Shown: in pieces, positions 51,939 to 53,052 of the stretch
Position numbering within the stretch: the stretch's first letter is position 1
Layout: each line of letters begins with the position of its first letter
Source of the DNA: Eledone cirrhosa
Taxonomy: Eukaryota
Reading direction: 5' to 3'
NCBI GenBank assembly: GCA_964016885.1
Contig: OZ024742.1
Span: forward strand, 128,340,001-128,404,000
Length of the DNA stretch: 64,000 bases
Position numbers and translations under genes: made by a program
The notes under the pieces: model-generated
What the model was told of the DNA's origin: nothing
The model's database searches: none
What the model saw: the letters and a program-made list of their open reading frames with translations, nothing else

Positions 51939-52599
51939 AACTTTTTCATATATATATATATATATATATACATATACACAGCAGTCGAACCTCTTGACAT
52001 ATTAATCAACTCAACAAATAAGGAGCAGTAATATTATTATTACATTCAAAGTAAAGGATGTCATGAATAATACAAAAACAAACATATGTCTTGTCTCAAA
52101 AAACAGCTCAAGATAGAATTCAGAGAATAAAATCAAGCCTTAAGTTTTGATGTATTGTAATACAGACTTATGTGTGTATGGATATATTTCATTCACATTT
52201 TCTATAATGATTAAGGCGCGCAACGTATACATAAACACAGTGATGGACAAAATCAAAAACAAAAAGATAAAAAAATTACATAAGAAGGGTAAATAGAAGT
52301 ATATATATGTATATATATATATATATATATATATATATATATACACATATATACAGGCTCACGCAAACACGCATATAAATATACACTCACGTATACATAC
52401 ATATGTATATATACATACATACCTATAAACGCATATTTATATACGTACAAGGACATACATACAAACATACGCACACATATATATATACATATATATGTAT
52501 ACATATACATATATATATATATATATATATATATATATATGAAAAGTATGGGGAGAAGAATACTGCATGGTTGCACATGGATTACATATTATAAAATTA

Positions 52600-52700
52600 G
52601 TCCCTCATCAGTGATTTCATCGATCATTGGTATTTCATCGCATTAAAAATCAGATACCTCAGGTTGGTGCGAACAATAACTAAAATAAGCTATTGGGACA
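52600..52700 (-). ncRNA. Hammerhead-like motif with reversed strand order, copy C
   Basis: Minus strand: ggta-TC-tgatttt, GAAA-tacc, gaaatca-CTGATGA-gggac; compensatory changes relative to copy A. Confidence 0.65.
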
Positions 52701-53052
52701 AGTGAAACGCATTAAAGCGAGTGAGACAAGTAAACAACAAGAAGGAAAAGCTAACCGAAGATGGGAAGAAAAACAAGCAACATGGTTATTCGGTCAGCAT
52801 AAGCTGGGTGAATACATGAGCGCTTAGCAAACAGACCTTTCGCTGTGAATGAGATGTAAGAAAGAAGGAATCCGACTCCTAGCGAACGGGATGAAGTGAG
52901 AAGGGGAGAAACAGAGAGTGAGTGAGTGGAAGTGCGAGGAAGAGGTCAGTCGAGAGAAAGTGTTAACTGACAGAGGGGACGAAAGAAGGTAAGAGAAACA
53001 GAGAGAACGAGGGAGCAGTAAGAGAGAAAGAGAGAAACAGAAAATCGCAGTT

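Follow-up and report, generated by a model that had tools for sequence, protein, structure and literature searches.

The minus strand of positions 52540–53052 of the window (the whole 64-kb stretch of Eledone cirrhosa DNA that was analysed) carries a repeat that we call copy C, about one unit of a non-autonomous family (family C) inserted in (TA)n. A (TA)n tract with no strand assignment adjoins its 5' end (53053–53522), and a second AT-repeat tract lies at its 3' end (approximately 52290–52539). The element consists of a pyrimidine-rich, non-coding body (52700–53052, minus strand), a motif described below, and a 3' segment (52540–52591, minus strand) holding a first 3' junction site, a Penelope-type tail and a second junction into (TA)n. 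Two related copies lie nearby. Copy A, of family A, occupies 51465–51950 on the plus strand and ends at the short junction without a tail; its motif spans 51836–51938 (plus strand), with a predicted cut at 51883/51884. Copy B (51130–51468, minus strand) is 5'-truncated and has its tail; its motif spans 51182–51284 (minus strand), with a predicted cut at 51237/51236. Copy B is the inverted partner of copy A, and the two make up a single inverted insertion, of another family than copy C. On either side of the A/B and C insertions lie abundant SINE-like repeats (50564–50990 and 53528–53984), further copies of which occur at other places in the window.

The remainder of the window is also rich in repeats. 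Two LINE copies (4997–8252 and 43092–46353), 95% identical, carry an AP endonuclease, a reverse transcriptase (RT) and a C-terminal PHD finger; LINE-related fragments lie at 27571–28410 and 32331–33410, and another RT at 35761–36921. A long compound microsatellite, GT-rich and extremely skewed between the strands, covers 19650–22500, and a MITE-like pair of 225-nt inverted repeats (40419–40643 and 41415–41639) is 96% complementary, with 771 nt between its arms. The 64-kb window contains no tRNA.

An earlier reading of this DNA from its letters alone (the sequence-only reading) had noted that a pyrimidine-rich body precedes the motif in copies C and A, and the composition agrees (74% and 71% pyrimidine, respectively). 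It had also seen little identity between the two bodies. Pairwise alignment gave 210 identical columns of 381 (55%), so the low identity stands, but the bodies are not unrelated: their global and local scores beat 200 of 200 shuffles under two shuffle schemes, and we regard them as homologous. The motif and the stretch after CUGAUGA are conserved, as had been claimed, with 86 of 114 motif columns and 32 of 46 columns over the 45 nt 3' of CUGAUGA identical between copies C and B. A three-block pattern describing the motif matched three times in the window and not once in 100 shuffles of it.

The copy C motif is predicted to fold as a hammerhead ribozyme, whose parts we list in 5'-to-3' order on the minus strand; core positions (for example 10.1, 11.1 and 17) follow what we take to be the standard numbering. 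The 5' edge of the motif, 52696–52699, would pair with 52600–52603 as helix P0, closing the whole structure. It is followed by Pa (52674–52695), a hairpin of 7 bp with an 8-nt loop that would form an arm of a four-way junction and is present in single-strand folds, and by the 5' strand of Pb (52668–52672), the distal part of stem II, which pairs with 52638–52642. A helix joining stems I and II (the I–II helix) has its 5' strand at 52662–52667, and 52659–52661 is the non-bulged strand of a predicted kink-turn. Block S (52647–52658) supplies the 5' strand of stem III, the AUC triplet and the 5' strand of stem I, and within it lies the predicted cut, between 52653 and 52652. Positions 52629–52646 hold a short linker, the 3' strand of Pb, N11.1 (52637) and block G, that is, GAAA (52633–52636) and the 3' strand of stem III. 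The bulged strand of the kink-turn (52623–52628; a 3-nt bulge, GA and N) and the 3' strand of the I–II helix (52618–52622), damaged in copy C, lead into block C (52600–52617), which comprises the 3' strand of stem I, CUGAUGA (52605–52611), G10.1 (52604) and the 3' strand of P0.

The core blocks therefore run in the order stem III strand, AUH triplet and stem I strand (S), then GAAA and stem III (G), then stem I and CUGAUGA (C), the arrangement of type SGC, and not in any of the circularly permuted orders of hammerhead types I, II and III (CGS, GSC and SCG). GAAA and CUGAnGA are invariant in all 22 aligned copies, and position 17 is A in 12, C in nine and U in one, never G. The sequence-only reading had sought GAAA on the 3' side of CUGAUGA alone, and its absence there is borne out: none occurs within 200 nt in copies C and A, and that of copy B, at +142, falls past the end of the element. 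The GAAA is present 5' of CUGAUGA. As the earlier reading had argued, the motif is not a truncated type III hammerhead. An HDV-like or truncated type II/III reading was discarded by eye, since no GAAA comes after the upstream GTCC strand.

Copies are frequently tandem, and minimal Penelope hammerheads reportedly work as dimers; both points favour a core assembled between two molecules or tandem units in canonical circular order, for which no non-circular permutation would be needed. We consider such an assembly very unlikely. Repeating S-G-C never gives the canonical cyclic order, and in 25 tandem units no GAAA lies within 207 nt downstream of CUGAUGA, the nearest being at least 207 nt away. 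The linker of 3–4 nt between stems I and II and the I–II helix also match monomeric SGC ribozymes (PMC10085705).

Judged from its sequence, the motif appears to behave like a type SGC hammerhead: its order is S-G-C, a short linker separates stem I from stem II, and a helix ties the two stems together. It lacks, however, a continuous stem II, in which the strand after CUGAnGA would pair with the strand before GAAA. Block C does not supply stem II uninterrupted, being split by the predicted four-way junction, and the pair 10.1–11.1 alone joins blocks C and G. That pair forms in 18 of the 22 copies (A-U in eight, U-A in five, G-U in three and G-C in two) and is mismatched in four; G10.1–C11.1 is the usual hammerhead pair. 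Beyond 10.1 the chain pairs instead with the motif's 5' edge (P0), and the strand 5' of GAAA with an upstream segment (Pb); hairpin Pa lies between them, such that a near-perfect four-way junction would form. An alternative register, in which P0 starts from 10.1 and 11.1 pairs with the G closing Pa, was paired in 5 and 11 of 22 copies, respectively, against 18 of 22; we rejected it for families D, E and F, and it is possible for families A and C. One family-A copy (L032:1775-1887, plus strand) retains an extra A after CUGAUGA, as in family E, which suggests that family A restored the 10.1–11.1 pair through a deletion and a U-to-C change.

Between stem III and the I–II helix, 21 of 22 copies match what we take to be the kink-turn consensus (helix, 3-nt bulge, tandem G.A and A.G, second helix), with both GA dinucleotides intact. 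The third position is U.U in 11 copies, G.U in four, U.C in three, G.A in three and A.A in one. A sixth stem III pair (alignment columns 49–80) was also tried; it fails in 10 of 22 copies, and its columns were reassigned to the kink-turn.

Across the 3.0-Gb genome, the core pattern matched 9,852 times, against none for a control, and a pattern built to exclude families A and C matched 3,736 times (control, 0). A GUH-type pattern gave 184 matches (control, 3) and brought in older families with unrelated stem sequences and the same block order. By eye, several of the older families keep the Pa/Pb junction and the I–II helix, with no obvious kink-turn. Older S-G-C families with unrelated stems are found at loci L141-L162, L137/L139/L140/L153, L136/L165 and L008:1774-1886. 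DNA searches returned 2,372 first-look candidates for copy C and 1,767 for copy B; 40 were scored for each, the best being 96–99% identical. Units measure 526–534 nt in family C and approximately 621–630 nt in family A, and tandem intervals range from 526 to 679 nt (25 measured, some from overlapping loci). At one locus (L134:1734-1848), two inverted copies are joined within the motif, producing a perfect palindrome that spans the core.

To examine covariation, we aligned 22 hand-picked copies from families A, C, D, E and F, drawn in part from 150 matches (46 clusters); the alignment omits chance rows, rows truncated at the 5' end and older families whose length differs. The 35-pair model was paired in 92.8% of cells, and 15 of the 35 pairs change on both sides, compared with 9.5 ± 1.4 in shuffles (0 of 500 reached 15) and 0–5 in controls with slid partners, in which the paired fraction fell to 27–48%. 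Because the copies share ancestry (about five families), comparison with shuffles exaggerates significance, and we give no p-value; further pair types showed no excess over shuffles (395/500). Double changes affect five of six pairs in the I–II helix, three of six in stem I (97.7% paired) and three of seven in Pa. The 5-bp stem III is 99.1% paired and varies little; like it, P0 and Pb (89% of cells paired, a double change in one of five pairs) covary little.

The small number of independent families would fit an ordinary SINE-like repeat whose apparent covariation arises from shared descent and chance. So would the unremarkable single-strand folding energy (z −1.2 to 0.4) and an Rfam scan at E ≤ 1 that returned no hammerhead or other ribozyme family, its only matches being to miRNAs, driven by microsatellites, and one below threshold to Alfamo_CPB, near copy C; however, the folding tool and the Rfam models are blind to pseudoknots. 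The collapse of pairing in the slid-partner controls weighs against this explanation, as does the retention of order and pairing in older families with unrelated stems. Chance matches also look different: a metagenome scan gave at least 119 loci, and among 118 matches rescored, seven had at least four of five stem I pairs and none had both kink-turn GA dinucleotides. We took these matches as chance, the kink-turn being absent and stem I mostly so. We regard the SINE-like explanation as largely refuted, and as highly improbable.

The sequence-only reading had proposed that selection acts on the RNA fold, with copy C supplying compensatory changes. Relative to copy B, copy C does supply them, with three double changes in stem I and two in Pa, and between families the proposal is upheld by compensatory changes in stem I, the 5' hairpin, the I–II helix and the 10.1–11.1 pair. 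It does not extend to copy C itself, whose I–II helix differs from that of family C by a 2-nt deletion and one substitution. This damage probably impairs copy C, which by its sequence would probably cut slowly, if at all. It is the source elements, and not copy C, that selection acted on.

The units contain no coding ORF: the Naiad ORF (N-terminal GIY-YIG, CxC motif and RT) is lacking, and the elements are non-autonomous. A Pol III B box is absent from three units. Nor does each tandem unit bear a type I hammerhead, as in non-LTR retrozymes; each has the S-G-C motif. The copies have 5' truncations, lie partly in tandem and are in some cases inverted; their targets are (TA)n. In families A, C and E, most 3' ends lie at one of two sites, approximately 14–16 and 54–66 nt past CUGAUGA, both at a short AT-repeat-like word. 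All eight scored inverted insertions have one short and one long end, the long end having been query-selected in seven family-A cases; such paired ends have been described for Penelope-like elements (PMC8557442, PMC11167929). Because the two sites match a Penelope tail, which measures approximately 30–40 nt and is present at a single end, the conserved stretch of approximately 35 nt after CUGAUGA, which the sequence-only reading had tied to the fold, is better explained as P0 plus a junction and tail signal: its first 5 nt pair in the fold, and most of the remainder is 3' junction and tail, not ribozyme.

These insertions recall Naiads, which were described as having (TA)n targets and no canonical hammerhead, with 'core' and 'half-core' flags and no fold reported (Craig et al. 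2021, PMC8557442). In that description Naiad_Ovul is flagged HHR_half_core, and Naiad 'half cores' 35–50 nt apart are left unexplained (PMC8557442). We judged by eye the 3' ends of 50 Naiad consensus sequences from its supplement (the last 300–350 nt of each). Five (Obim, Ovul, Amil, Aacu and Anas) show S-G-C order with a split stem II, and the ends of Esco and Bfor are probably also S-G-C. Six nematode ends (three Nbra, Hcon, Hpol and Asuum) read as C-S-G with clean stems, and the other 37 showed neither clearly. By eye, the layout of the present elements, their kink-turn motif and their Pa loop of 8 nt recur in Naiad_Obim and Naiad_Ovul. In octopus and coral Naiads the strand exchange appears, by eye, one base pair closer to the core; the register of the junction is therefore not universal. 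Many bivalve, hemichordate and other Naiad 3' ends share another conserved, apparently structured motif without CUGAnGA, possibly another ribozyme class.

We found no intact or young autonomous Naiad in the genome through GIY-YIG loci, a 25-mer shared by Obim and Ovul (0 matches) or Naiad-like RT searches, despite the youth of families A, C and E. The present families are 95–99% identical, in contrast to cephalopod Naiads, which Craig et al. called long inactive (PMC8557442). Six Naiad-like RT loci were recovered, all broken (Pfam RVT_1 E = 0.21); two have a decayed S-G-C motif of another family 3' of the RT, and four have no linked motif. This decay would suit mobilization of the same ribozyme and element type by abundant elements with a C-terminal endonuclease (Neptune/Penelope-type) in place of Naiads, and the top GIY-YIG matches examined are of that kind (L117-L135), some with ORFs of 840–1100 aa. 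We nevertheless hold it to be unlikely. Among 45 GIY-YIG loci, no S-G-C motif belongs to such an element, the copies present there being unlinked (L116 checked), and several of the L117-L135 elements carry CUGAnGA and then GAAA, in canonical order, just downstream of the ORF. The layout of the motif, by eye, instead matches published Naiad ends. In an older AT-rich family (28 loci), tblastn with three Neptune-like ORFs found no RT.

Taken together, copy C is probably a non-coding, high-copy repeat with Penelope-type insertion, likely mobilized by Naiads, whose RNA is predicted to fold as a non-circularly permuted SGC hammerhead that cuts after an AUH triplet. In this model, stem II would be reduced to the lone 10.1–11.1 pair, stacked on Pb through the four-way junction with P0 and Pa; a 6-bp helix would tie stem I to stem II; and the kink-turn would bend the chain from the I–II helix back towards stem III. 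Tandem transcripts would cut themselves into unit-length RNAs, which would probably be religated into circles. A Naiad RT/endonuclease acting in trans would then nick (TA)n DNA, with reverse transcription starting at one of the two sites past CUGAUGA. In the copies that we examined, sequence is continuous from the body across the predicted cut site to the 3' end, which indicates that the template was uncut, multimeric or circular RNA.

The same continuity across the cut site would be expected if the fold, though real and derived from a hammerhead, now served mainly as an RT binding or priming signal and had little or no cutting activity. A Poseidon element with a mutated hammerhead was still able to insert in vitro, cleavage thus not being needed for insertion, and that hammerhead failed to cut when protein was absent (Frangione et al. 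2024, PMC11167929). In addition, eight of nine Xenopus retrozymes tested did not cleave (bioRxiv 10.64898/2026.07.22.740005), and in the present copies the 10.1–11.1 pair is mostly A-U, U-A or G-U. Against this stands the conservation of the core: the single-stranded catalytic nucleotides stay constant while the helices change, and no copy has G at position 17, as catalysis would predict. We therefore think a role confined mainly to binding or priming quite improbable, and favour the cutting SGC hammerhead.

A wider proposal, which we advance tentatively and with some doubt, is that Naiads and their non-coding parasites share a four-block hammerhead. Its permutation would be non-circular, its stem II split by a four-way junction beside the core, and its fold dependent on a kink-turn to which a host protein of the L7Ae family binds, giving a protein-gated ribozyme that makes circular templates. 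Nematode Naiads would have independently arrived at CSG, and animal genomes would be a main home of scrambled hammerheads. A scrambled hammerhead would explain why Naiads seemed to lack one, a puzzle that is now directly testable. A core that tolerates strand exchange at, or one pair past, A9 would revise the view of three uninterruptible blocks, and a natural kink-turn would bear on how, in SGC folds, the I–II helix is joined to stem III, a question that Eckert et al. did not settle.

Type SGC hammerheads (HRIMA-1 and variants) were described by Eckert et al. (2023, PMC10085705) as known only from metatranscriptomes, with none in the genomes of known organisms. Those tested cut at the predicted site and require the I–II helix, with rates of 0.007–0.13 per min for SGC-1 to SGC-5; for CSG, two sequences are given, both from DNA metagenomes (PMC10085705), to which the nematode C-S-G Naiad ends may be related. 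Published non-circularly permuted hammerheads come only from environmental sequence and one bacterial candidate, and here an animal genome gives about 10,000 pattern matches. A full-text search, mainly of papers outside subscription, returned no report that places hammerheads of type SGC or CSG in Naiads or in the genomes of animals, and none of a retroelement whose hammerhead is combined with a kink-turn and a four-way junction. The present motif resembles type SGC in its block order, full core, short linker from stem I to stem II and helix that connects these stems on their other sides. It differs in that stem II in the published text is built from blocks G and C, with blocks assumed to be uninterrupted, whereas here a single pair joins these blocks and the remaining stem II is reached via the upstream four-way junction; we saw neither a split stem II nor the kink-turn between the I–II helix and stem III in the text of PMC10085705.

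As elements, these repeats are like the Naiads of PMC8557442 in targeting (TA)n, in being truncated at the 5' end, in forming partial tandems with an inverted 5' copy, in bearing a tail at one end and in lacking a canonical hammerhead; unlike Naiads, they are non-coding, measure 526–679 nt and have the junction one pair farther from the core. They are like animal non-LTR retrozymes in being non-coding, hammerhead-bearing units of a few hundred nt (bioRxiv 10.64898/2026.07.22.740005; PMC7229834), which have been proposed to be non-autonomous derivatives of Penelope-like elements (bioRxiv 10.64898/2026.07.22.740005). The defining feature of retrozymes is, however, a type I hammerhead, and type I descriptors serve to detect them (bioRxiv 10.64898/2026.07.22.740005), so an S-G-C motif would be missed; current retrozyme and ribozyme searches would overlook the whole class. 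With the Poseidon element PAc (PMC11167929) they have in common two reverse-transcription start sites, a tail (30–40 nt in PAc) and AT-rich targets. PAc, in contrast, is autonomous and carries a hammerhead of canonical order at the start of its ORF, and its start sites are not homologous to the target (PMC11167929), whereas both ends of the present elements fall at an AT-repeat-like word.
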